Translations under genes and position numbers: made by a program
The notes under the pieces: generated by a model
The model's database searches: none
Seen by the model: the letters and a program-made list of their open reading frames with translations, nothing else
Told to the model about the DNA's origin: nothing
Shown here: positions 6,428-52,482 of the stretch, piece by piece
Numbering within the stretch: the stretch's first letter is position 1
Layout of the letters: each line of letters begins with the position of its first letter
Assembly (NCBI RefSeq): GCF_013122565.1
Contig: NZ_CP053258.1
Source of the DNA: Escherichia coli
GTDB lineage: Bacteria; Pseudomonadota; Gammaproteobacteria; Enterobacterales; Enterobacteriaceae
Direction: 5' to 3' (one strand)
DNA length: 64,000 nt

Positions 6428-7417
6428 TTAGCCGCCAATGTACGATAAGTTTTGTGTAATACCGGTGTTGTTTTGATGCAGGAAATGGGTCTGTTTCTTC
6501 TCCCGCAGCGCCGCTGAAATACGCGCTTCCAGCGCCTGTTGCTGGGTATCGTCTTCCAGCAGATCGCGCAGGTTAACGCCGCCCTCACCAAACAGGCAGA
6601 GATGGAGTTTACCAATGGAGGAAACGCGCAGGCGGTTGCAAGTGGCGCAGAAGTCTTTTTCATACGGCATGATAAGGCCAATCTCTCCAGCGTAATCCGG
6701 ATGACAAAAGACTTGCGCGGGACCGTCGCTGCGTTGACGTAATTGGTGGATCCAGCCGCGACGCAGTAGCTCGTCACGCAGAACCTGACCAGAGATGTGA
6801 TGCTTACGGAAGAGCTCGCTGCCCTCGCCCGTTTCCATCAGTTCGATGAAACGCAGCTGGATGGGACGATGCTGGATCCAGTCCAGAAAGGTGTCGAGCT
6901 GGTGATGGTTGACATCGCGCATCAGCACGGTATTGACTTTGACCTTCTCAAAACCGGCCTCAAATGCAGCATCGATCCCTGCCATGACCTGGTTGAATTT
7001 ATCCTGCCCGGTAATGGCATGAAACTGGCGAGCGTCGAGACTATCAACACTGACGTTAATGCCAGTAAGTCCCGCATCGCGCCAGTTCGCCACGTCGCGT
7101 TCCAGACGGTAACCATTGGTGGTGACCGCAATCTGACAGATAGCGTTGTTTTCCCGCACAGCGGCGATGATATCGGTAAAGTCGCGGCGTAAAGACGGCT
7201 CACCGCCTGTCAGGCGCACTTTTTCGGTGCCCAGACTGGCGAAGGCGCGCGTAACCCGGCGAATTTCATCGACGGTAAGGAAGCCTTTATTGGTGACGCC
7301 GCTCGGTTTGTAGCCTTCCGGCAGGCAGTAGGTGCAACGAAAGTTACACACATCGGTAATCGACAGGCGCAAGTAGTAAAACTTACGCGCAAATGCATCA
7401 GTCAGTTGTGAAGCCAT
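6428..7417 (-). CDS. moaA: GTP 3',8-cyclase MoaA (radical SAM), 329 aa
   Basis: ORF 6428..7498 with start at MASQLTDAF; CxxxCxxC motif (CNFRCTYC). Confidence 0.93.
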
Positions 7418-7419
7418 GT

Positions 7420-7570
7420 ACACCTTTCCAGATACGGGAGGCGAAGTCATTTCTTCCTTCGCCCTGGTGGCAATCTTTACGAGCATTGTCACGGCCAAAG
7501 CACCGTATCAGTTGACCCAGGTGCAGAGGCTAGAGTGTTTAGTAGTTAAGCCGATACTAGCGTGTAAACG
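7420..7570 (-). ncRNA. moaA 5' leader; expected position of the molybdenum cofactor (Moco) riboswitch
   Basis: Established knowledge that the E. coli moaABCDE leader carries the Moco RNA motif; leader present here but structure not folded by me; boundaries approximate. Confidence 0.5.
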
Positions 7571-8778: not shown

Positions 8779-8877
8779 TGCCGGATGCGGCGTGAACGCC
8801 TTATCCGGCCTACAAACCGCGCAAATTCAATATATTGCGGAGAAAATGTAGGCCTGATAAGCGTAGCGCATCCGGCT
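8779..8877. repeat. REP/BIME-like palindromic repeats between convergent ybhK and uvrB
   Basis: ccggatgcggcgtgaacgccttatccggcctac ... gcctgataagcgtagcgcatccggc. Confidence 0.6.
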
Positions 8878-39355: not shown

Positions 39356-40297
39356 ATGGCGCACTCACACTCACACACTTCCCCACACCTGCCAGAAGAT
39401 AATAATGCTCGTCGCTTGTTGTATGCTTTCGGCGTGACTGCCGGGTTTATGCTGGTAGAAGTCGTTGGTGGTTTTCTTTCTGGTTCTCTGGCATTGCTGG
39501 CCGATGCGGGTCATATGTTGACCGATACTGCTGCCCTGCTTTTTGCCCTACTCGCCGTGCAATTTTCACGTCGTCCTCCCACCATTCGCCACACTTTCGG
39601 TTGGCTAAGATTGACCACGCTCGCGGCGTTTGTGAATGCCATAGCCCTGGTGGTGATTACTATTTTGATTGTCTGGGAGGCGATAGAACGCTTCCGCACA
39701 CCGCGTCCGGTCGAGGGCGGCATGATGATGGCAATTGCCGTGGCTGGGTTGCTGGCAAATATACTTTCTTTCTGGTTACTTCATCACGGCAGCGAAGAGA
39801 AAAACCTCAACGTACGAGCAGCGGCACTGCATGTGCTCGGGGACCTGCTGGGTTCGGTTGGGGCTATTATTGCCGCGTTGATTATTATCTGGACCGGCTG
39901 GACACCTGCTGACCCTATTCTCTCGATACTGGTGTCGCTTCTGGTTCTGCGTAGCGCGTGGCGACTGTTGAAAGATAGCGTGAATGAATTACTTGAAGGT
40001 GCACCGGTATCGCTGGATATCGCTGAACTGAAGCGTCGTATGTGCCGGGAAATCCCGGAAGTCCGCAATGTGCACCATGTACATGTATGGATGGTAGGCG
40101 AGAAGCCGGTGATGACGCTGCATGTGCAGGTGATCCCGCCACACGATCACGATGCCTTGTTGGATCAGATCCAACACTACCTGATGGATCACTATCAGAT
40201 TGAGCACGCCACCATTCAGATGGAATATCAACCTTGTCATGGGCCAGACTGCCACCTGAATGAAGGGGTGTCTGGCCATTCACATCATCACCATTAA
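39356..40297 (+). CDS. zitB: Zinc efflux cation diffusion facilitator ZitB
   Basis: 313-aa ORF, His-rich termini, recognised. Confidence 0.92.
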
Positions 40298-41013
40298 TGG
40301 GACAGCGCGCGTGAGCCTCTTTCGCGTGCGCTGTTGATCCACATCCGACTGCCGTTGAGCGCAATAAAGGTCAGGATGATGTACTCCAGAGACATGGCGT
40401 AAACGCCCTGAAGTGCAAAAATAACGACGCTAATCACGTTAATAATCACCCACAACAGCCAGTTTTCCACATACTTACGCGTCATCAGAATCATTGCCAC
40501 GATAGATAACACCATCATGCATGAATCCCAGAACGGAAAAGCGTCCGGTTGCAGTTCAGGCATCACAACCTGTAATCCTAATGCTTGCATGATCATGACT
40601 GCCACGCGGGTCAAAAATGCAAACACCGGATTGATAAATACCGTCATCAGACCAATCGAAACAACGCAAACCGCCAACCAGCTGAGCGCCTTCGGCAATG
40701 GCAACCAGCGAATTTTCAACTCCGCCTCGTTCTGACTGGTTTGTCGCGACCACGCATACCAACCGTAAATATTCGCGGCAAAGAAAAACACCTGTAATAG
40801 CAGGCTGGCATACAGCTGAATCTGAAAGAAAATAATGCCAAACAAAGTGACGTTGATCAGGCCAAAGAAGTAGTTGCTGATCTTCTCCAGACTGGCAAGG
40901 CCAATACACAGCAACCCGGCGATCGTGCCTACCGCTTCGATCCATGAGAGATCATAACCGCCTGCCCCTATTGGTATATGTACCAGGATATTCTGCACAC
41001 TAAAAAAATCCAT
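40294..41013 (-). CDS. pnuC: Nicotinamide riboside transporter PnuC
   Basis: 239-aa membrane ORF, downstream of nadA. Confidence 0.92.
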
Positions 41014-41050
41014 CTTTCCCCCAAAGCGTAACGTTACGCCTTATTATTCG

Positions 41051-42094
41051 TTATCCACGTAGTGTAGCCGCAAAATCCAGCATACGATTGAGCGGCACCA
41101 GCGCCCTCTCTCGCAGCCTCTCATCAACATGAACCTCGTGATTACTTCCTTCCTGTTCTAATGCCTCTGCGATAGCCTGAAGGCCATTCATGGCCATCCA
41201 CGGACAATGCGCGCAGCTGCGGCAGGTTGCACCCTCACCTGCGGTTGGTGCTTCCAGTAACTCTTTATCTGGCACCGCCTGCTGCATTTTGTAGAAAATA
41301 CCCCGATCGGTTGCCACAATAAGCCGCTGATGAGGCAATGCTTTTGCAGCAGCGATCAGTTGACTGGTGGAACCGACCGCATCCGCCATATCGACAATAG
41401 CTTGTGGTGATTCTGGATGCACCAGTATGGCAGCATCCGGGTATTCTTCTTGCAAGCGGGTTAACGCCTGAGTCTTAAATTCATCATGCACAATGCAGGC
41501 ACCCTGCCAGCATAAAATATCTGCGCCCGTCTGTTTTTGCACGTAACGCCCCAGATGTTTGTCGGGTGCCCAGATGATTTTTTCACCCAAACTATCCAGA
41601 TGATCAATAAGTTCGACGGCAATGCTTGAAGTTACCACCCAATCTGCCCGCGCTTTTACCGCAGCAGAAGTGTTGGCGTAGACGACGACAGTACGATCGG
41701 GATGGGCATCGCAAAATGCGTTAAATTCTTCAACAGGGCAGCCGAGATCCAGTGAACACTCAGCCTGAAGTGTCGGCATCAGAATTGTTTTTTCCGGACT
41801 GAGAATTTTGGCGGTTTCTCCCATAAATCTCACCCCAGCGACTAACAACGTAGAAGCGGGATGCTTTGCACCGAAGCGCGCCATTTCCAGAGAATCAGAA
41901 ATACAGCCACCGGTTTCTTCTGCCAGTTGTTGAATTTCGGGATCGGTATAGTAATGGGCAACCATCACCGCATTACGTTCTTTTAGCAGACGTTTTATCT
42001 TCTCGCGGTAATACGCTTTTTCATCAATGCTTAACGGCGTCGGCTTCGGGGGGAAAGGATAAATCGCCGTGTCTGGATCAAACATCACGCTCAT
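41051..42094 (-). CDS. nadA: Quinolinate synthase NadA
   Basis: 347-aa ORF, recognised. Confidence 0.95.
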
Positions 42095-42166
42095 CTTACC
42101 ATCTCGTTTTACAGGCTTAACGTTAAAACCGACATAAGCGTGATATTCGCTGTTATCGGTGTAATT

Positions 42167-42184
42167 TGTTTTATATGCTAAACA
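42167..42184. promoter_or_regulatory. NadR operator upstream of nadA
   Basis: tgttttatatgctaaaca close to TGTTTA-N6-TAAACA. Confidence 0.7.
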
Positions 42185-42337
42185 AGATAGTCGAATGGTG
42201 GGGAAAAGTCACTCGAATTACGCCTAATGTGCAGGATGCGTCATTTTACGCCTAATTCTACCGACATAGAGTTGCTTGCACAGTAAGCTCTGACTATGTC
42301 ATCAGGTTTACAAAGTTAAATTGAGGGATGCCTGAAT

Positions 42338-42366
42338 AGCAAAAAAGCGCCTTTAGGGCGCTTTTT
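42338..42366 (-). terminator. Rho-independent terminator at the end of the tRNA operon
   Basis: gcgcc...ggcgc hairpin flanked by A/T runs, just downstream (minus strand) of the last tRNA. Confidence 0.7.
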
Positions 42367-42371
42367 TACAT

Positions 42372-42447
42372 TGGTGGGTCGTGCAGGATTCGAACCTGCG
42401 ACCAATTGATTAAAAGTCAACTGCTCTACCAACTGAGCTAACGACCC
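42372..42447 (-). tRNA. lysQ: tRNA-Lys (UUU)
   Basis: Exact match to remembered E. coli tRNA-Lys including CCA; name by position next to nadA. Confidence 0.95.
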
Positions 42448-42480
42448 CTTGCGGGATTATGCTGCTTTAATCATTCAGGA

Positions 42481-42556
42481 TGGTGGGTCGTGCAGGATTC
42501 GAACCTGCGACCAATTGATTAAAAGTCAACTGCTCTACCAACTGAGCTAACGACCC
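42481..42556 (-). tRNA. lysZ: tRNA-Lys (UUU)
   Basis: Identical 76-nt copy. Confidence 0.95.
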
Positions 42557-42604
42557 ATACGGGTGTTACCTGAAAGATTTCTACTCGGAACCAATCTTTA
42601 AAAT

Positions 42605-42702
42605 TGGTGGGTCGTGCAGGATGACTCGCTTCGCTCGCCCTACGGGCCGTTGCTGGCGCAACGTTATCCTTCACGCTTAACATCTGAGTTTGATGTTAAA
42701 AC
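42605..42702 (-). repeat. Spacer repeat copy 1 (ends, in transcript sense, with a 17-nt copy of the tRNA-Lys 3' end)
   Basis: tggtgggtcgtgcagga then gactcgcttcgctcgccctacgggccgttgctg...; three near-identical copies in this operon. Confidence 0.7.
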
Positions 42703-42778
42703 TGGTGGGTCGTGCAGGATTCGAACCTGCGACCAATTGATTAAAAGTCAACTGCTCTACCAACTGAGCTAACGACCC
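42703..42778 (-). tRNA. lysY: tRNA-Lys (UUU)
   Basis: Identical 76-nt copy. Confidence 0.95.
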
Positions 42779-42781
42779 GAG

Positions 42782-42857
42782 TGGTGGGTGATGACGGGAT
42801 CGAACCGCCGACCCCCTCCTTGTAAGGGAGGTGCTCTCCCAGCTGAGCTAATCACCC
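42782..42857 (-). tRNA. valZ: tRNA-Val (UAC)
   Basis: 76 nt, recognised tRNA-Val (GGGTGATTAGCTCAGCTGGGAGAGCACCTCCCTTACAAGGAGG...CCA on minus strand). Confidence 0.93.
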
Positions 42858-42908
42858 GATACTGCGCTGGATACTACAAACTACTTCCACCGAACCCACC
42901 GTAATTAG

Positions 42909-43006
42909 TGGTGGGTCGTGCAGGATGACTCGCTTCGCTCGCCCTACGGGCCGTTGCTGACGCAACGTTATCCTACACGCTTAACATCTGTCTTCGATGT
43001 TAAAAT
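42909..43006 (-). repeat. Spacer repeat copy 2
   Basis: Same element as 42605-42702 with a few substitutions. Confidence 0.7.
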
Positions 43007-43082
43007 TGGTGGGTCGTGCAGGATTCGAACCTGCGACCAATTGATTAAAAGTCAACTGCTCTACCAACTGAGCTAACGACCC
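43007..43082 (-). tRNA. lysW: tRNA-Lys (UUU)
   Basis: Identical 76-nt copy. Confidence 0.95.
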
Positions 43083-43084
43083 GG

Positions 43085-43160
43085 TGGTGGGTGATGACGG
43101 GATCGAACCGCCGACCCCCTCCTTGTAAGGGAGGTGCTCTCCCAGCTGAGCTAATCACCC
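43085..43160 (-). tRNA. valT: tRNA-Val (UAC)
   Basis: Identical to the other Val copy. Confidence 0.93.
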
Positions 43161-43195
43161 GATACTACGCTGGATACTACAACTAACTATGTTAG

Positions 43196-43295
43196 TGGTG
43201 GGTCGTGCAGGATGACTCGACTTCGTCTCGCCCTTCGGGCCGTTGCTGACGCAACGTTATCCTTCACGTTTTACTACCGCTTCCACCTTAGCGCT
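43196..43295 (-). repeat. Spacer repeat copy 3
   Basis: Same element, slightly diverged (gactcgacttcgtctcgcccttcgggccg). Confidence 0.7.
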
Positions 43296-43371
43296 TGGTG
43301 GGTCGTGCAGGATTCGAACCTGCGACCAATTGATTAAAAGTCAACTGCTCTACCAACTGAGCTAACGACCC
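43296..43371 (-). tRNA. lysT: tRNA-Lys (UUU)
   Basis: Identical 76-nt copy; first gene of the operon. Confidence 0.95.
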
Positions 43372-43535
43372 ACTTTTTCGTTGCTTTCGGTTTGTTTGAT
43401 ATCCCGTGGCAACGGCGGCATATATTACTGATTTCAGACTTGAGCGCAACAAAAATTTCGATGTAGATCACTCAACTGCTTATGATTCGCACGACACGAC
43501 CAGAAATAATGCGACTTCTGGTCGTGTGTTATGCA

Positions 43536-44327
43536 TTACATCGCGTTCAGACGTTTTTGCGCCTGTTTAGCGCCATCAGTACCAGGGTATTTACTGATAA
43601 CCTGCTGGTATACGGCTTTCGCTTTTGCGGTGTCACCTTTGTCCTGCATGATGACGCCGACTTTAAACATCGCATCTGCAGCCTTTGGTGACTTCGGATA
43701 GTTTTTCACTACCGAAGCAAAATAGTACGCCGCATCATCTTTTTTACCCTTGTTGTAGTTTAACTGACCCAGCCAATAATTGGCGTTTGGCAGGTAAGTT
43801 GAATCAGGGTAATTTTTGATGAAATTCTGAAATGCCACCATTGCGTCATCCTGGCGGGATTTATCCTGCACCAGCGCAATAGCTGCATTGTAATCCGTGT
43901 TTGCATCGCCGCTTTTCACCGGCGCGCCAGCATTCGCAGTACCAGCATCAGCTGTCGGCGTCGTTGATGCCGCCGCACCGCTTTGATCACCGCTGGTTGA
44001 TTGCGCCGCTGCACCACCGCTGCTGAGGCTGTCGATCTGCAACAGGATCTGCTTTTGCCGCTCCACGACCTGATTCAGTTGATACTGATTTTCCTGAATC
44101 TGACCACGCAGGGAATCAATATCGGATTGATTATCAGAGAGTTGTTGCTGGAGTTGGGTTAAAAGCTGGCTGTGAGCATTAGAAATACGCTCAAGTTGAG
44201 TGACGCGGTCTTCGACCGAGCCTGAGCCGACACTACTGATTGGTGCCTGAGCAAAAGCGGCCCAGGGGGCCGCTATACCAACCAGTAACGACAGACTCAA
44301 TAGTTGATGTCTGAAGTTACTGCTCAT
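43536..44327 (-). CDS. cpoB: Cell division coordinator CpoB (YbgF), TPR protein with signal peptide
   Basis: 263-aa ORF, recognised. Confidence 0.93.
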   Translation of the reverse strand: MSSNFRHQLLSLSLLVGIAAPWAAFAQAPISSVGSGSVEDRVTQLERISNAHSQLLTQLQQQLSDNQSDIDSLRGQIQENQYQLNQVVERQKQILLQIDSLSSGGAAAQSTSGDQSGAAASTTPTADAGTANAGAPVKSGDANTDYNAAIALVQDKSRQDDAMVAFQNFIKNYPDSTYLPNANYWLGQLNYNKGKKDDAAYYFASVVKNYPKSPKAADAMFKVGVIMQDKGDTAKAKAVYQQVISKYPGTDGAKQAQKRLNAM

Positions 44328-44336
44328 GCAATTCTC

Positions 44337-44882
<546 letters not shown>

Positions 44883-44892
44883 TTAATTATTA

Positions 44893-46185
44893 TCACAGAT
44901 ACGGCGACCAGGCAGGGAATTTGACCTGTCCATCAGTTGCCGGAAGACGCGCTTTGAAACGCCCATCTGTAGAAACCAAATTCAGCACGGATCCCATCCC
45001 CTGAGAAGAGCTGTAGATTACCATAGTGCCGTTAGGTGCCAGACTTGGCGTTTCATCCAGGAACGTGGACGACAGAACTTGTACGCCTCCCGTTGCCAGA
45101 TCTTGTTTGGCAATGTGCTGCTGCCCACCGTTGGAGCTGACCATTACCATAAATTTACCGTCGCTGCTGACATCCGCATCCTGGTTCTGCGAACCTTCCC
45201 AGGTAATACGTTGTGGCGCACCGCCGTTGATATTCACTTTATAAACCTGTGGACGACCGGCCTGGTCAGAAGTAAATGCCAGGTTCTGGCTGTCCGGGAA
45301 CCAGGTCGGTTCGGTATTGTTACTGCGACCATCAGTCACCTGGCGGATCTGACCAGAAGCCAAATCCATTACGTACAGGTTCAGACTACCGGTTTTCGAC
45401 AAGGCGAATGCCAGTTTGCTGCCGTCTGGCGAGAATGCAGGTGCACCGTTGTGACGCGGGAATGAAGCCACCTGACGTACAGCGCCATTTGCCAGCGTTT
45501 GGATGACCAGCGCGGAACGACCACTTTCGAAGGTCACATAAGCCAGTTTAGAACCGTCTGGTGACCATGCCGGAGACATCAGCGGCTGCGGTGAACGGTG
45601 AACGACAAACTGGTTGTAACCGTCATAGTCAGATACGCGCAGTTCATACGGGAACTGACCGCCGTTGGTCTGAACAACGTAGGCAATACGGGTACGGAAC
45701 GCACCTTTAATGCCGGTCAGTTTTTCAAACACTTCATCACTGGCGGTATGACCAGCATAACGCAGCCACTGCTTGTTCACTTTGTACGAGTTCTGAGCAA
45801 GTACAGTACCCGGTGCGCCGCCAGTGTCAACAAGTTGATAAGCAACATTGTAAGAACCATCCGGATTCGGAGTGACCTGACCGACAACCACAGCGTCAAT
45901 GCCCAGCGCAGACCATGCAGCTGGTTGTACTTCCTGCGCACTACCCGGCTGCTGTGGCAGACGAGCGCGATCTAACGGATTAAATTTACCGCTGTTACGC
46001 AAGTCAGCAGCAACGATGCCGCCAATATCTTCAGGTGCCGCACCTGGCCCCGCCCACTGGAAAGGAACAACACCAATAGGACGACCGGAATCTACACCGC
46101 TATCGATCACAATGCGGACTTCAGCATGCAGAACTGATGCCCACAGTATGAGAAAACCAAATGCTACTCGTAATGCCTGCTTCAT
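44893..46185 (-). CDS. tolB: Tol-Pal system periplasmic protein TolB, 430 aa
   Basis: ORF 44893..46188, start at second Met ([21 protein letters not shown]). Confidence 0.95.
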
Positions 46186-46317
46186 CATATCTCCCTTATC
46201 TGGACCGATGGCCCACGATAATTTAGCAGAATGTTAACAAACTAAAATACACAAAACTACCAGAACCCCGTGGCAACCGGTGCCTGATGTTGACCGTCGG
46301 AACAGTCAGCATCGCGA

Positions 46318-47598
46318 TTACGGTTTGAAGTCCAATGGCGCGTTTTTGAACACTTCATATACTGCCTGGCTTGGTGGTTTCGGGATCTTCGCAAGTTTAG
46401 CCGCTGCCAACGCAGCCTGACAAAGTGCGGGATCGCCACCTTCAGGTTTGATATCCAGTAACATACCATCGGGTGCCAGTTTTATGCGCAGCGTACAGGT
46501 TTTGCCTGCATAGGACGATGCGTCATAGAACTTACTTTCGATAGCAGATTTAATCTGCCCGGCATAGTTATTGATATCGGCCCCTGATGCGCCATTGTTT
46601 TTAGTATTACCACTCCCGGCAGGCGAAGCATTGTTCCCTTTCGCTCCTCCCCCCGTTTTCGGTGCATTCTTACCAGAGCTTAGCTCACCGAAAATATCAT
46701 CTGCCTCTGCGGCAGCTTTTGCTGCAGCGGCTTTTTCAGCTGCTGCTTTTTCAGCTGCTGCTTTTGCAGCTGCCGCTTTTTTGTCTGCGGCGGCTTTTTC
46801 TGCCGCTGCTTTCTTATCAGCTGCTGCCTTTTCAGCAGCCGCTTTTTCTGCTGCTTTTTTGTCGGCTGCAGCTTTCTCTGCTGCCGCTTTCTTATCAGCT
46901 GCTGCCTTTTCAGCAGCCGCTTTCTTCTCAGCTTCTGCCTTGGCTTTTTCAGCAGCTTCAGTTGCTGCTTTCTTTCTTGCTTCAGCTGCAGCCGCTTCTG
47001 CCGCTTCCGCTTTCTTCTTCAGTGCCGCAGCGGCTGCCTCGGCTTTTTTCTGCGCTTCGGCTGCGGCTTTGGCGGCTTCTGCTTCTGCTTTTTTCTTCGC
47101 GTCTGCAGCCGCTTTCTTCGCTGCTTCTTCCGCAGCTTTAGCATCCGCTTCGGCCTTCGCTTTAGCATCTGCCGCCGCTTTCGCTGCCGCCTCTTCCGCT
47201 TGCTTCTGCTTTAACTCGGCCTGTTTTGCGGCTTCTTCAGCCTGCTTTTTCTGTTCCTGAGCAGCTAACCGCTCTTTCTCAAGTTGCTTCAGGCGTTCCT
47301 GTTCAGCCGCTTGTTTCTCACGCAGTTCTTCAGCAGCCTGCTGTTCCTTCATCTTGCGCTGCTCATCAGAACGCTTCGCGCTTGATTCCTGGCTTTGCAT
47401 GCGTTTGTACTGCTCAACTACCGCACCTGAATCAACCATGACAGCGTCGATGGACGAACCACCGCCGCCTCCGGCTGAAGCTTCTATATTCTCATCGAAC
47501 GAACTCCAGATCAGCGCCGCAAATAAGATGACATGCAGCACTGCTGAAATAATTATCGCCCGCTTGAGCTTGTCGTTTTGTTCGGTTGCCTTTGACAC
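46318..47598 (-). CDS. tolA: Tol-Pal system protein TolA (426 aa; long Ala/Lys/Glu-rich repeat domain)
   Basis: ORF track; recognised N-terminal anchor and C-terminal domain; central region built from tandem DNA repeats. Confidence 0.93.
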   Translation of the reverse strand: MSKATEQNDKLKRAIIISAVLHVILFAALIWSSFDENIEASAGGGGGSSIDAVMVDSGAVVEQYKRMQSQESSAKRSDEQRKMKEQQAAEELREKQAAEQERLKQLEKERLAAQEQKKQAEEAAKQAELKQKQAEEAAAKAAADAKAKAEADAKAAEEAAKKAAADAKKKAEAEAAKAAAEAQKKAEAAAAALKKKAEAAEAAAAEARKKAATEAAEKAKAEAEKKAAAEKAAADKKAAAEKAAADKKAAEKAAAEKAAADKKAAAEKAAADKKAAAAKAAAEKAAAEKAAAAKAAAEADDIFGELSSGKNAPKTGGGAKGNNASPAGSGNTKNNGASGADINNYAGQIKSAIESKFYDASSYAGKTCTLRIKLAPDGMLLDIKPEGGDPALCQAALAAAKLAKIPKPPSQAVYEVFKNAPLDFKP

Positions 47599-47662
47599 TC
47601 TCGGTTTCCAAAAACTGTTCGCCTGTTACCCGCTATCTTTCAAGCAAGGGAAACGCAGATGT

Positions 47663-48091
47663 TTAGATAGGCTGCGTCATTAAACCAACCGATTTCACAC
47701 CCGCACTATGTAACAAGTTCAGTGCTTTAATTATTTCATCGTAAGGCACATCTTTTGCGCCACCGATCAGAAAGACCGTTTTCGGGTTGGCCTTGAAACG
47801 GCTGGACACTTCCGCCACCACCTGCTCTGGTGGTAAACGCTCCAGGCGATCTTTCTCAACCACCACGGTGTACTGACCAATACCAGACACTTCAACAATC
47901 ACTGGCGGATTATCGTTACTGCTCACCGCCTGTGATTCAGTAGCGTCTGGCAGATCGACCTCCACGCTCTGGGTGATGATGGGCGCTGTCGCCATAAAGA
48001 TCAGCAACAGCACCAGCAGTACGTCCAGCAACGGTACAATGTTGATTTCGGACTTGAGATCGCGACGACCTCGTCCACGCGCTCTGGCCAT
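47663..48091 (-). CDS. tolR: Tol-Pal system protein TolR
   Basis: 142-aa ORF, recognised. Confidence 0.95.
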   Translation of the reverse strand: MARARGRGRRDLKSEINIVPLLDVLLVLLLIFMATAPIITQSVEVDLPDATESQAVSSNDNPPVIVEVSGIGQYTVVVEKDRLERLPPEQVVAEVSSRFKANPKTVFLIGGAKDVPYDEIIKALNLLHSAGVKSVGLMTQPI

Positions 48092-48094
48092 GGC

Positions 48095-49188
<1,094 letters not shown>

Positions 49189-49337
49189 TTTACATCCCGG
49201 TAATGCAACAAAAGTTAGAGCTTTTAAACGCTGCTACTATACGCGCGCGATTGAGGTTTGGGAATGAGGGCAAGTTAAGGGAGCGTAAAAATTTATGGGC
49301 CTGAAGCGGCCCATAATTTTTTAAAGAGAATTCTGAT

Positions 49338-49631
49338 TTAAAAGAAGAAGAAAATCAGCCCGACAATGAGAACAATATCGGCAAGCAATGGGCAAAAAAT
49401 CCCTTGCCAGAGAACCTTCTGCGGACGAAAGCCCACGCCGTGAATCACACCAGCACAGACGGCCCACATCAGCAATAAACCATGCCAGATTTCCAGCTCA
49501 CTGGTCTTCGCGGCAAAACGAGATGGGTCCCAAAACATACATCCTGCTAACAGAAGCGCCATCACGAAGGAAAGCGCCCGCAGGGGGCGCTTGTCCATTA
49601 CCGCATACAAGGTCGCGATAATCTTACTCAT
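49338..49631 (-). CDS. ybgE: Cyd operon inner membrane protein YbgE
   Basis: 97-aa ORF, recognised by position. Confidence 0.88.
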   Translation of the reverse strand: MSKIIATLYAVMDKRPLRALSFVMALLLAGCMFWDPSRFAAKTSELEIWHGLLLMWAVCAGVIHGVGFRPQKVLWQGIFCPLLADIVLIVGLIFFFF

Positions 49632-49744
49632 CAGATGTCTTCTTGACCGGCTTTGCCTGATTCGACGTGCTCAAGCGCCAGCGCGGTGATTACCCCAAAC
49701 GAACAGGCAAGAAGCGTTCCCAGAATCCATGCGAAATACCACAT
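49631..49744 (-). CDS. cydX: Cytochrome bd-I small subunit CydX (YbgT), 37 aa
   Basis: Below the ORF-track cutoff; hand-translated MWYFAWILGTLLACSFGVITALALEHVESGKAGQEDI; its stop shares one nt with the ybgE start. Confidence 0.88.
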   Translation of the reverse strand: MWYFAWILGTLLACSFGVITALALEHVESGKAGQEDI

Positions 49745-49758
49745 TTTTAGCTCCTTAC

Positions 49759-50898
49759 TTAGTACAGAGAGTGGGTGTTACGTTCAATATCTTCTTTGGT
49801 GATACGACCGAACATTTTCCAGTAACACCAGGCGGTGTAGAGCAGAATGATCGGTACCAGAACCACCGCAACCCAGGTCATGACGTTAAGCGTCAGCTGG
49901 CTGGAAGTTGCATCCCACATTGTCAGACTTGCGTTCATCATGGTGCTGGACGGCATCACAAACGGGAACATTGCGATACCGGCAGTCAGGATGATGCAGG
50001 CCAGCGTCAGGGAGGAGAACACAAACGCCCACGCGGCTTTATCCATACGTGCAGTCAGGATGGTCAGCAGCGGCAGAACTACACCCAGTGCCGGAATAGC
50101 CCACAGAATTGGCGTGTTGTTGAAGTTAACCAGCCATGCGCCAGCTTCACGAACCACTACTTTATTCTGCGGGTTAGAGGCTGCGTAATGGTCCATTGTC
50201 GATTTCACGACATAACCATCGATACCGTACATCACCCATACGCCAGCCAGTGCGAAGCAGACCAGTGTCACCAGTGCCGCCACCTGAGCCGTTGCACGGG
50301 TACGCAGGTGCAGTTCGCCCACGGTACGCATTTGCAGATAGGTTGCGCCCTGAGTAATGATCATCCCTACGCTCACCACGCCTGCCAGCAGGCCGAACGG
50401 ATTAAGCAACTGAAAGAAGTTACCGGTGTAGTACAGACGCAGATATTCATCAACGTTGAACGGTACGCCCTGCAACAGGTTACCGAACGCTACACCAATT
50501 ACCAGCGGCGGAACGAAGCTACCAATGAAGATGCCCCAGTCCCACATGTTACGCCAGCGGGTTTCTTCAATCTTGGAGCGGTAGTCAAAACCGACCGGAC
50601 GGAAGAACAAAGACGCCAGCACGAGGATCATCGCCACATAGAAGCCGGAGAACGCAGCGGCATAGACCATCGGCCAGGCAGCAAAGAGTGCGCCGCCCGC
50701 GGTGATCAGCCAAACCTGGTTACCGTCCCAGTGTGGAGCAATGGAGTTAATCATAATTCGACGCTCGGTGTCGTTACGACCGAGAAAACGGGTGAGCATG
50801 CCCACCCCCATGTCGAAACCGTCAGTGACTGCAAAACCAATCAGCAGAACGCCAACCAGCAGCCACCAGATAAAACGCAATACTTCATAATCGATCAT
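49759..50898 (-). CDS. cydB: Cytochrome bd-I ubiquinol oxidase subunit II CydB
   Basis: 379-aa ORF, recognised. Confidence 0.96.
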   Translation of the reverse strand: MIDYEVLRFIWWLLVGVLLIGFAVTDGFDMGVGMLTRFLGRNDTERRIMINSIAPHWDGNQVWLITAGGALFAAWPMVYAAAFSGFYVAMILVLASLFFRPVGFDYRSKIEETRWRNMWDWGIFIGSFVPPLVIGVAFGNLLQGVPFNVDEYLRLYYTGNFFQLLNPFGLLAGVVSVGMIITQGATYLQMRTVGELHLRTRATAQVAALVTLVCFALAGVWVMYGIDGYVVKSTMDHYAASNPQNKVVVREAGAWLVNFNNTPILWAIPALGVVLPLLTILTARMDKAAWAFVFSSLTLACIILTAGIAMFPFVMPSSTMMNASLTMWDATSSQLTLNVMTWVAVVLVPIILLYTAWCYWKMFGRITKEDIERNTHSLY

Positions 50899-50913
50899 TT
50901 GACGACTCCTGTC

Positions 50914-52482
50914 TTAGCGTGCCGGCTGAGTAGTCGTGGAAGACTGCTCAAAGTGATAGCGACCGGTTTTCAGGCTGCTTGGGCCGAGGCGTGCAAACTT
51001 GAACATTAAGAACAATTCTGCCACCAGGAACAGGGTATACAGGCCGCAAATCAGCACCATTGAGAAGATGAGATCGCCTGCGGTCAGTGACGAGTTCGCC
51101 ACAGCTGTCGGCAGCACTTCACCGATAGCCCACGGTTGGCGGCCATATTCAGCCACGAACCAGCCCGCTTCTACAGCAATCCACGGCAGCGGAATACCGT
51201 ACAGCGCGGCGCGCAGCAGCCATTTTTTCTCGCCAATGCGGTTGCGGATGACACTCCAGAAAGAGAGCGCGATGATTGCCAGCAGCAGGAAGCCACACGC
51301 CACCATGATACGGAACGCGAAGTACAGCGGCGCTACACGCGGAATGGAGTCTTTGGTTGCCTGTTGAATCTGAGCTTCAGTCGCATCAGCCACGTTTGGC
51401 GTATAGCGTTTCAGCAGCAGACCGTAACCGAGGTCTTTCTTCATGCTATTGAACTGGTCACGAACCGCCTGGTCGGTAGAACCAGAACGCAGTTGTTCGA
51501 GCAGAGAGTAAGCCTTCATCCCGTTACGAATGCGTTCTTCATGCTGCACCATCAGTTCTTTCAGGCCGATAACTGGAGTATCCACGGAACGCGTTGCAAT
51601 GATGCCCAGCGCGTAAGGGATCTGGATCGCAAATTTGTTCGTCTCCTCTTCCTGATCAGGAATGCCGAACAGAGTAAAGGCAGCAGGCGCAGGTTGCGTT
51701 TCCCACTCGGCTTCAATAGCAGCCAGTTTGGTTTTCTGCACGTCGCCCATTTCGTAACCAGATTCATCACCCAGAACAATAACAGACAGAACGGCAGCCA
51801 TACCGAAGCTGGCAGCGATAGCAAAGGAGCGTTTAGCGAAGGCGAAGTCACGACCTTTCAGCATATACCATGCGCTGATACCGAGGATGAACATCGCGCC
51901 AGTCACATAACCAGACGCTACAGTGTGAACGAATTTCACCTGAGCAACCGGGTTAAGCACCAGCTCGGAGAAGCTCACCATCTCCATACGCATAGTTTCA
52001 AAGTTGAAATCGGACGCGATTGGGTTTTGCATCCAGCCGTTCGCAACCAGAATCCACAGTGCGGACAGGTTTGAACCGAGCGCCACCAGCCAGGTGACAC
52101 ACATATGCTGAACTTTACCCAGACGATCCCAACCGAAGAAGAACAGACCTACAAAGGTGGATTCGAGGAAGAAGGCCATCAGACCTTCGATTGCCAGCGG
52201 CGCACCGAAGATATCCCCTACATAGTGGGAATAGTAAGACCAGTTAGTCCCGAACTGGAACTCCATAGTCAGACCGGTAGCCACACCCAGAGCGAAGTTG
52301 ATACCAAACAACTTGCCCCAGAACTTGGTCATATCTTTATAAATCTGTTTGCCGGAAAGGACGTAGACCGTTTCCATAATGGCCAGCAGGAACGCCATAC
52401 CGAGCGTCAGTGGCACAAAAAGGAAGTGGTACATCGCGGTCAAGGCAAACTGTAAGCGCGACAGTTCGACTATATCTAACAT
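50914..52482 (-). CDS. cydA: Cytochrome bd-I ubiquinol oxidase subunit I CydA, 522 aa
   Basis: ORF 50914..52485, start at second Met ([20 protein letters not shown]). Confidence 0.96.

Follow-up and report, generated by a model that had tools for sequence, protein, structure and literature searches.

TolA is a protein of three parts, with domain I serving as an inner-membrane anchor, an alpha-helical domain II crossing the periplasm and domain III contacting outer-membrane partners. That the tandem repeats of its gene are polymorphic in length is already known, having been described in 2012, and a comparison of alleles and phenotypes across repeat numbers was published in the same year (PMC3477136). 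In MG1655, the tolA array comprises 13 imperfect repeats, each 15 or 18 bp long (PMC3477136), while a survey of 234 isolates, in the form in which that paper cites it, found 8-16 units, with 13 units in 66% (Zhou, Vanoirbeek, Aertsen and Michiels 2012, Res Microbiol 163:316, via PMC3477136). Contractions of the array were recovered from MG1655 at a frequency of 6.9e-5, in an assay that selected contractions only, and were RecA-dependent, raised in a uvrD background and insensitive to mutS; five-unit deletions predominated among them, and the last two units, which were suggested to be part of the YbgF (CpoB)-binding segment, never took part (PMC3477136). Constructs of 2, 6, 8, 13, 26 and 39 units were tested in the same work, the number of repeats giving graded tolerance of deoxycholate and also affecting tolerance of high salt and low pH, with susceptibility to phage fd reduced in every tested variant except that of 13 units (PMC3477136). 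Later papers treat tolA repeat variation as established (PMC8583887, PMC12505904).

Comparable systems are the ahpC TCT tract and the mutL CTGGCG tract (both cited in PMC3477136), together with bacterial contingency loci, in all of which, as in tolA, the gain or loss of a unit in frame alters the protein. What distinguishes tolA from these is that its units are long (15 or 18 nt) and imperfect, that its changes depend on recombination and are insensitive to mutS (PMC3477136), and that its repeats tune the length of a spacer without turning a gene on or off. Here, we describe the tolA allele carried by a 64-kb stretch of Escherichia coli DNA, referred to below as the window, and compare it with alleles from complete E. 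coli genomes. We conclude that it is almost certainly a natural allele in which the known tandem-repeat tract has 14 units, on an E. coli-type chromosome, and as such it is an ordinary example of the published polymorphism.

The gene itself occupies positions 46318-47598 of the minus strand, where an open reading frame of 1281 nt with a GTG start encodes 426 amino acids and a stop codon. Its product matches the TolA equivalog model NF007065 (NCBIfam) over its full length (557.9 bits against a cut-off of 213) as well as TIGR02794 (310.5 bits against 59.45), and in RefSeq it is the protein WP_001624913.1, found in strains Res13 and G5; an exact look-up of the 426-residue sequence in a collection of 15 billion proteins returned no entry, though RefSeq holds that accession. 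Directly upstream lies tolR (47663-48091, minus strand; NCBIfam NF008248, 272.8 bits against a cut-off of 162) and directly downstream tolB (44893-46188, minus strand; TIGR02800, 521.4 bits against 343). Since five neighbours on the same strand, namely YbgC, TolQ, TolR, TolB and Pal, all exceed the cut-offs of their equivalog models, the locus is the canonical ybgC-tolQ-tolR-tolA-tolB-pal cluster.

Two of these neighbours carry details of their own. The pal frame (44337-44882, minus strand) gives 181 residues from a TTG codon, with position 1 of the Pal model aligning at residue 9, and the 431-residue tolB frame begins MM, upstream of the start of its family model, so that the true starts of both genes probably lie a few codons downstream of those listed. 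Rfam places the CpoB/ybgF thermometer RNA, which is known from this locus, at the 3' terminus of pal and its junction with cpoB (44298-44436, minus strand; RF02782, 142 bits, gathering score 51).

The three domains can be placed along the window protein. Domain I, read from the translation, covers residues 1-47 (47458-47598, minus strand) and ends at a GGGGG linker at residues 43-47, its boundary being one that we take from the established literature. It includes an S18/H22 motif (within ...IIISAVLHVILF...), which we take to be the conserved Ser/His pair of the TolA N-terminal membrane anchor; the single anchor at residues 13-35, AIIISAVLHVILFAALIWSSF, carries both S18 and H22 and is the same in K-12. 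The Ala/Lys/Glu-rich helical spacer of domain II extends over about residues 48-315 (46654-47457, minus strand), with A, K, E, D and Q making up 92% of residues 101-312. The globular C-terminal domain III, at residues 330-424 (46327-46611, minus strand), is recognised by Pfam PF06519 (E=2e-38, 130.9 bits) and has the same sequence as its K-12 counterpart.

Within domain II, a unit-by-unit parse resolves a main array of 14 units of 15 or 18 nt, of the KKAAAE, KAAAD, KAAAE and KAAAA types, at residues 225-298 (46705-46926, minus strand). Read in the tolA frame, the units follow one another as KKAAAE, KAAAD, KKAAAE, KAAAD, KKAAE, KAAAE, KAAAD, KKAAAE, KAAAD, KKAAAA, KAAAE, KAAAE, KAAAA and KAAAE, and K-12 tolA parsed in the identical way yields 13. 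Tandem Repeats Finder detects the repeats as a single array (46706-46928) that it reads at periods of 15, 33 and 78, and a direct-repeat search recovers a family of 12 in-register copies (D1) spaced by 15 or 18 nt. At period 78 the matches amount to 85% and the score to 291, and this higher-order period, equal to five units, accounts for the predominance of five-unit deletions among the published contractions (PMC3477136). A weaker second repeat, of period 24 (ADAKAKAE), was found by Tandem Repeats Finder in the upstream part of domain II (47123-47185, minus strand) and is unexpanded in the window gene.

Because a protein so rich in Ala, Lys and Glu would appear repetitive in its DNA whatever the order of its codons, we used a control in which codon order was shuffled inside the array while the same codons were kept (2000 shuffles). 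Base identity in the observed array is 0.714 at a lag of 15 and 0.762 at a lag of 78, against 0.495 +/- 0.04 in the shuffled sequences (z = 6.3 and 6.5, respectively), and as 0/2000 shuffles reach the observed match, the periodicity is genuine and no by-product of composition. Three copies each of the motifs GCTGCTGCCTTTT and GCCGCTTTCTTATCAGC are present in the entire window, where 0.11 and 0, respectively, would be expected, and every one of these copies falls within 46739-46932.

Alignment with K-12, whose tolA is 1266 nt and encodes 421 amino acids in both C600 and MG1655 derivatives, reveals a sole difference in length, an in-frame insertion of 15 nt by which AAAGCAGCAGCTGAA (KAAAE) is exactly repeated in tandem. 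This 15-mer makes up both unit 11 and unit 12 of the window array (46735-46764, minus strand), each encoding KAAAE, one of the two being the unit that K-12 lacks; the aligner places the insertion at 46751-46765, a placement that is ambiguous over a 21-nt range. Self-identity at a distance of 15 nt runs over 21 consecutive positions of the window gene (gene nt 834-869), while no perfect 15-nt tandem occurs anywhere in K-12 tolA. The window gene thus stands very close to that of K-12 TolA (WP_000030637.1, 421 aa): operon position is shared, as are residues 1-277, domain I and domain III, and what sets the window apart is one more KAAAE together with 15 substitutions, each of them synonymous and at a third codon position, which amount to 1.2% of the DNA. 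The original prediction, in giving 421 residues for K-12 TolA against 426 here and in reading the Ala/Lys/Glu-rich domain as encoded by tandem DNA repeats, is borne out on both points, by the open reading frame and the K-12 derivatives in the one case and by Tandem Repeats Finder, the parse and the codon shuffles in the other, and the array does not have the K-12 number of repeats.

The tolA gene of strain Res13 encodes the same protein as the window and shares the duplication in its DNA, which otherwise differs from that of the window at nine sites, again all third positions. This pattern of substitution, 15 sites relative to K-12 and nine relative to Res13, points to selection acting on the tolA frame. 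The occurrence of the same duplication in Res13 despite nine synonymous differences argues that the extra unit is an inherited lineage allele, one that a few other strains carry by common descent, and not a fresh event in the strain from which the window comes.

Two trivial accounts of the five-residue difference have to be weighed against this reading. Repeat arrays are prone to error in assembly, and one might suppose the additional 15 nt to be an artefact of sequencing or assembly in a strain whose gene is truly of K-12 length; a case of a garbled, frameshifted central region does exist among the records that we fetched, in the tolA of NIPH17_0036 (NZ_AP024561.1). The insertion in the window is, however, in frame and an exact whole unit, the identical duplication is present in the DNA of Res13 and the identical protein is encoded by G5, and alleles of 1281 nt occur in at least 30 independent complete genomes, so that we regard an artefact as very improbable. 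Still less credible is the proposal that the discrepancy stems from the choice of start codon or from annotation and not from repeat number. The gene does have a GTG start, and alternative starts often cause discrepancies in length, but RefSeq annotates the GTG-start frame in every one of the 19 records fetched, and the alignment refutes the idea directly, as residues 1-277 match K-12 fully and the difference maps wholly to residues 278-283, inside the array. A natural allele with one additional repeat unit is, then, the reading that we carry forward.

A rival of another kind concerns the opposite strand, where the central part of tolA is open over long distances. The ORF list contains a frame of 229 codons with a low-complexity translation of the SAAAF type (46571-47260, plus strand) and another of 159 codons whose low-complexity translation is rich in Leu, Gln and Pro (46662-47141, plus strand), both lying entirely inside tolA, and from about 46682 to 47138 stop codons are absent from all three plus-strand frames. 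The length of the two frames is what might recommend either as a real overlapping gene, together with the circumstance that the 229-codon frame shares its third positions with tolA, such that changes synonymous in tolA are often silent there too; for this same reason third-position substitutions were dropped as a means of discriminating between tolA and the 229-codon frame. When the order of tolA codons 101-312 (212 codons) was shuffled, the antisense open run was 159 +/- 38 codons, compared with 198 observed, and since shuffled codons still give long antisense runs, the openness follows from composition. Neither frame matches a Pfam family, both are of low complexity, and the 19 RefSeq tolA records carry no annotation of a gene on the strand opposite tolA. 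An overlapping gene is accordingly next to inconceivable, and both frames are spurious by-products of the Ala/Lys/Glu codon composition, as had been proposed from the letters of the sequence.

To place the allele among its relatives, we compared it with tolA across complete E. coli genomes, of which 5,425/5,426 gave a megablast match at a region annotated as tolA; one genome was without a match, and two of the matches lie on records labelled as plasmids. In samples of 40 and 60 records taken at even steps down the ranked list of matches, the K-12 length of 1266 nt was found in 25/40 and 39/60, or about 65%, with the remaining ~35% differing. This figure stands beside the 66% with 13 units reported for the isolates of Zhou et al., as that survey is cited in PMC3477136. 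Sixteen length classes were seen (1185, 1188, 1200, 1203, 1215, 1221, 1227, 1251, 1266, 1272, 1275, 1281, 1290, 1296, 1299 and 1311 nt), all of them multiples of 3, in keeping with the earlier suggestion that copy number is variable among strains. The best 30 of the 5,425 matches are all 1281 nt in length and from about rank 93 alleles are of 1266 nt, which bounds the number of genomes with a 1281-nt gene at no fewer than 30 and at most about 92, a rare class representing ~0.6-1.7% of complete genomes.

The alignment of alleles that the original prediction had proposed as a check was carried out on 19 alleles fetched to span the range of lengths, 18 of which are intact and encode 394-436 amino acids. 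In all 18, whether aligned or parsed, insertions and deletions are confined to domain II, and a protein alignment of 14 sequences is invariant over residues 1-47 and from ADDIFGEL through the C-terminus, domain III included. Among six alleles longer than that of K-12, five (+6, +15 twice, +24 and +33 nt) carry an insert that repeats the segment next downstream with 100% identity, while in the sixth (+45 nt) the identity is 78%. Such duplications also fall upstream of the main array, examples being the perfect 24-nt ADAKAKAE duplication after K-12 nt 429 in GPEC1352 and the 6-nt GCAGCT (Ala-Ala) duplication in ET350.

The one allele that is not intact is that of NIPH17_0036 (locus 601-1742), a tolA of 1142 nt annotated as a pseudogene with a frameshift and internal stops. 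Small indels and ~92 mismatches crowd gene nt 346-1017, between two normal ends. The possibility that domain II is inverted was considered and ruled out, since its reverse complement gives no alignment (local score 10). What the record resembles is a poor consensus across the repeats, and we do not take it for a biological allele.

Alleles with 14 units are not all alike, and three distinct types can be told apart in their DNA. In the window and Res13 it is AAAGCAGCAGCTGAA that is duplicated, whereas SMS-3-5, 2021CK-01784 and CH4796 have instead a second copy of the core of unit 10 (AAAGCGGCAGCTGCA, KAAAA). Strain G5 (NZ_CP060065.1) has K-12 tolA with a perfect 15-nt duplication of GCAGCTGAAAAAGCC at gene nt 841-872 and zero other differences, and it encodes the one 426-residue protein of the window, though the two genes differ at 16 sites. 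The most economical reading of these sequences is that single units were gained three times independently within gene nt 819-872, and that WP_001624913.1 would have originated convergently in G5 and in the window; recombination between alleles, in place of three separate gains, could also have produced this distribution. That the same spot, units 10-12 (gene nt 819-872), has undergone repeated independent expansion to 14 units is a tentative proposal, and one that we think rather doubtful at present. These units lie immediately N-terminal of the last two of the array.

Elsewhere in the window, several features were observed independently of the repeats. The region 40000-52000 has a best identity of 98.9% among the 5,426 complete E. 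coli genomes, with matches to baboon, soil and Shiga-toxin-producing isolates. The chromosome of the window is thus absent from that set and belongs to a lineage without close relatives in it, possibly Shigella or an uncommon lineage of E. coli. Seven tRNA genes, five for Lys-UUU and two for Val-UAC, lie at 42372-43371 (minus strand), and in their spacers three Rfam matches to RtT RNA (54-61 bits), overlapping adjacent tRNA-Lys genes, indicate that the spacers are themselves repeated. A molybdenum cofactor riboswitch (Rfam RF01055, 102 bits) is found at 7405-7549 on the minus strand and the small RNA ES036 (Rfam RF02751, 43.4 bits against a gathering score of 37.6) at 8814-8855 on the plus strand.

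The course of events that would best fit the natural allele is one in which units of the array pair out of register as the DNA recombines or replicates, so that whole units are gained or lost in frame; the domain II spacer would thereby vary in length among strains, with domains I and III left unchanged. In the present case, duplication of AAAGCAGCAGCTGAA on the 13-unit K-12 arrangement would have raised the product from 421 to 426 residues. The array had been described as prone to slippage, a description that is partly apt: the instability stands, but the published contractions are RecA-dependent and thus reflect recombination between repeats in place of simple polymerase slippage (PMC3477136), whereas gains of single units may come about by either slippage or unequal exchange. 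Five further residues, at 1.5 Angstrom each, would lengthen the helix by ~0.75 nm, and the step from 13 to 14 units may be expected to have at most a small effect on phenotype. Its 14 units fall within the 8-16 published, as that range is given by Zhou, Michiels and Aertsen 2012 (PLoS One 7:e47766, PMC3477136), and although this particular arrangement, 13 units with one KAAAE added at units 11/12, is absent from their engineered variants (PMC3477136), nothing essential otherwise differs.

For the annotation of this chromosome, the 426-residue TolA is to be regarded as a genuine natural allele and not an error, and the antisense frames should not be called genes. For the biology of the protein, the allele belongs to a variable locus driven by recombination, in which the length of the TolA spacer tunes both tolerance of bile salts (deoxycholate) and the entry of filamentous phage, as was established in 2012. 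To this the present comparison adds a check of the published allele distribution across 5,425 complete genomes and the observation that the 14-unit state evidently arose more than once. Were the repeated expansions at units 10-12 to prove real, this segment may be either a local mutational hot spot or the site of selection for a slightly longer spacer beside the putative YbgF-binding segment.
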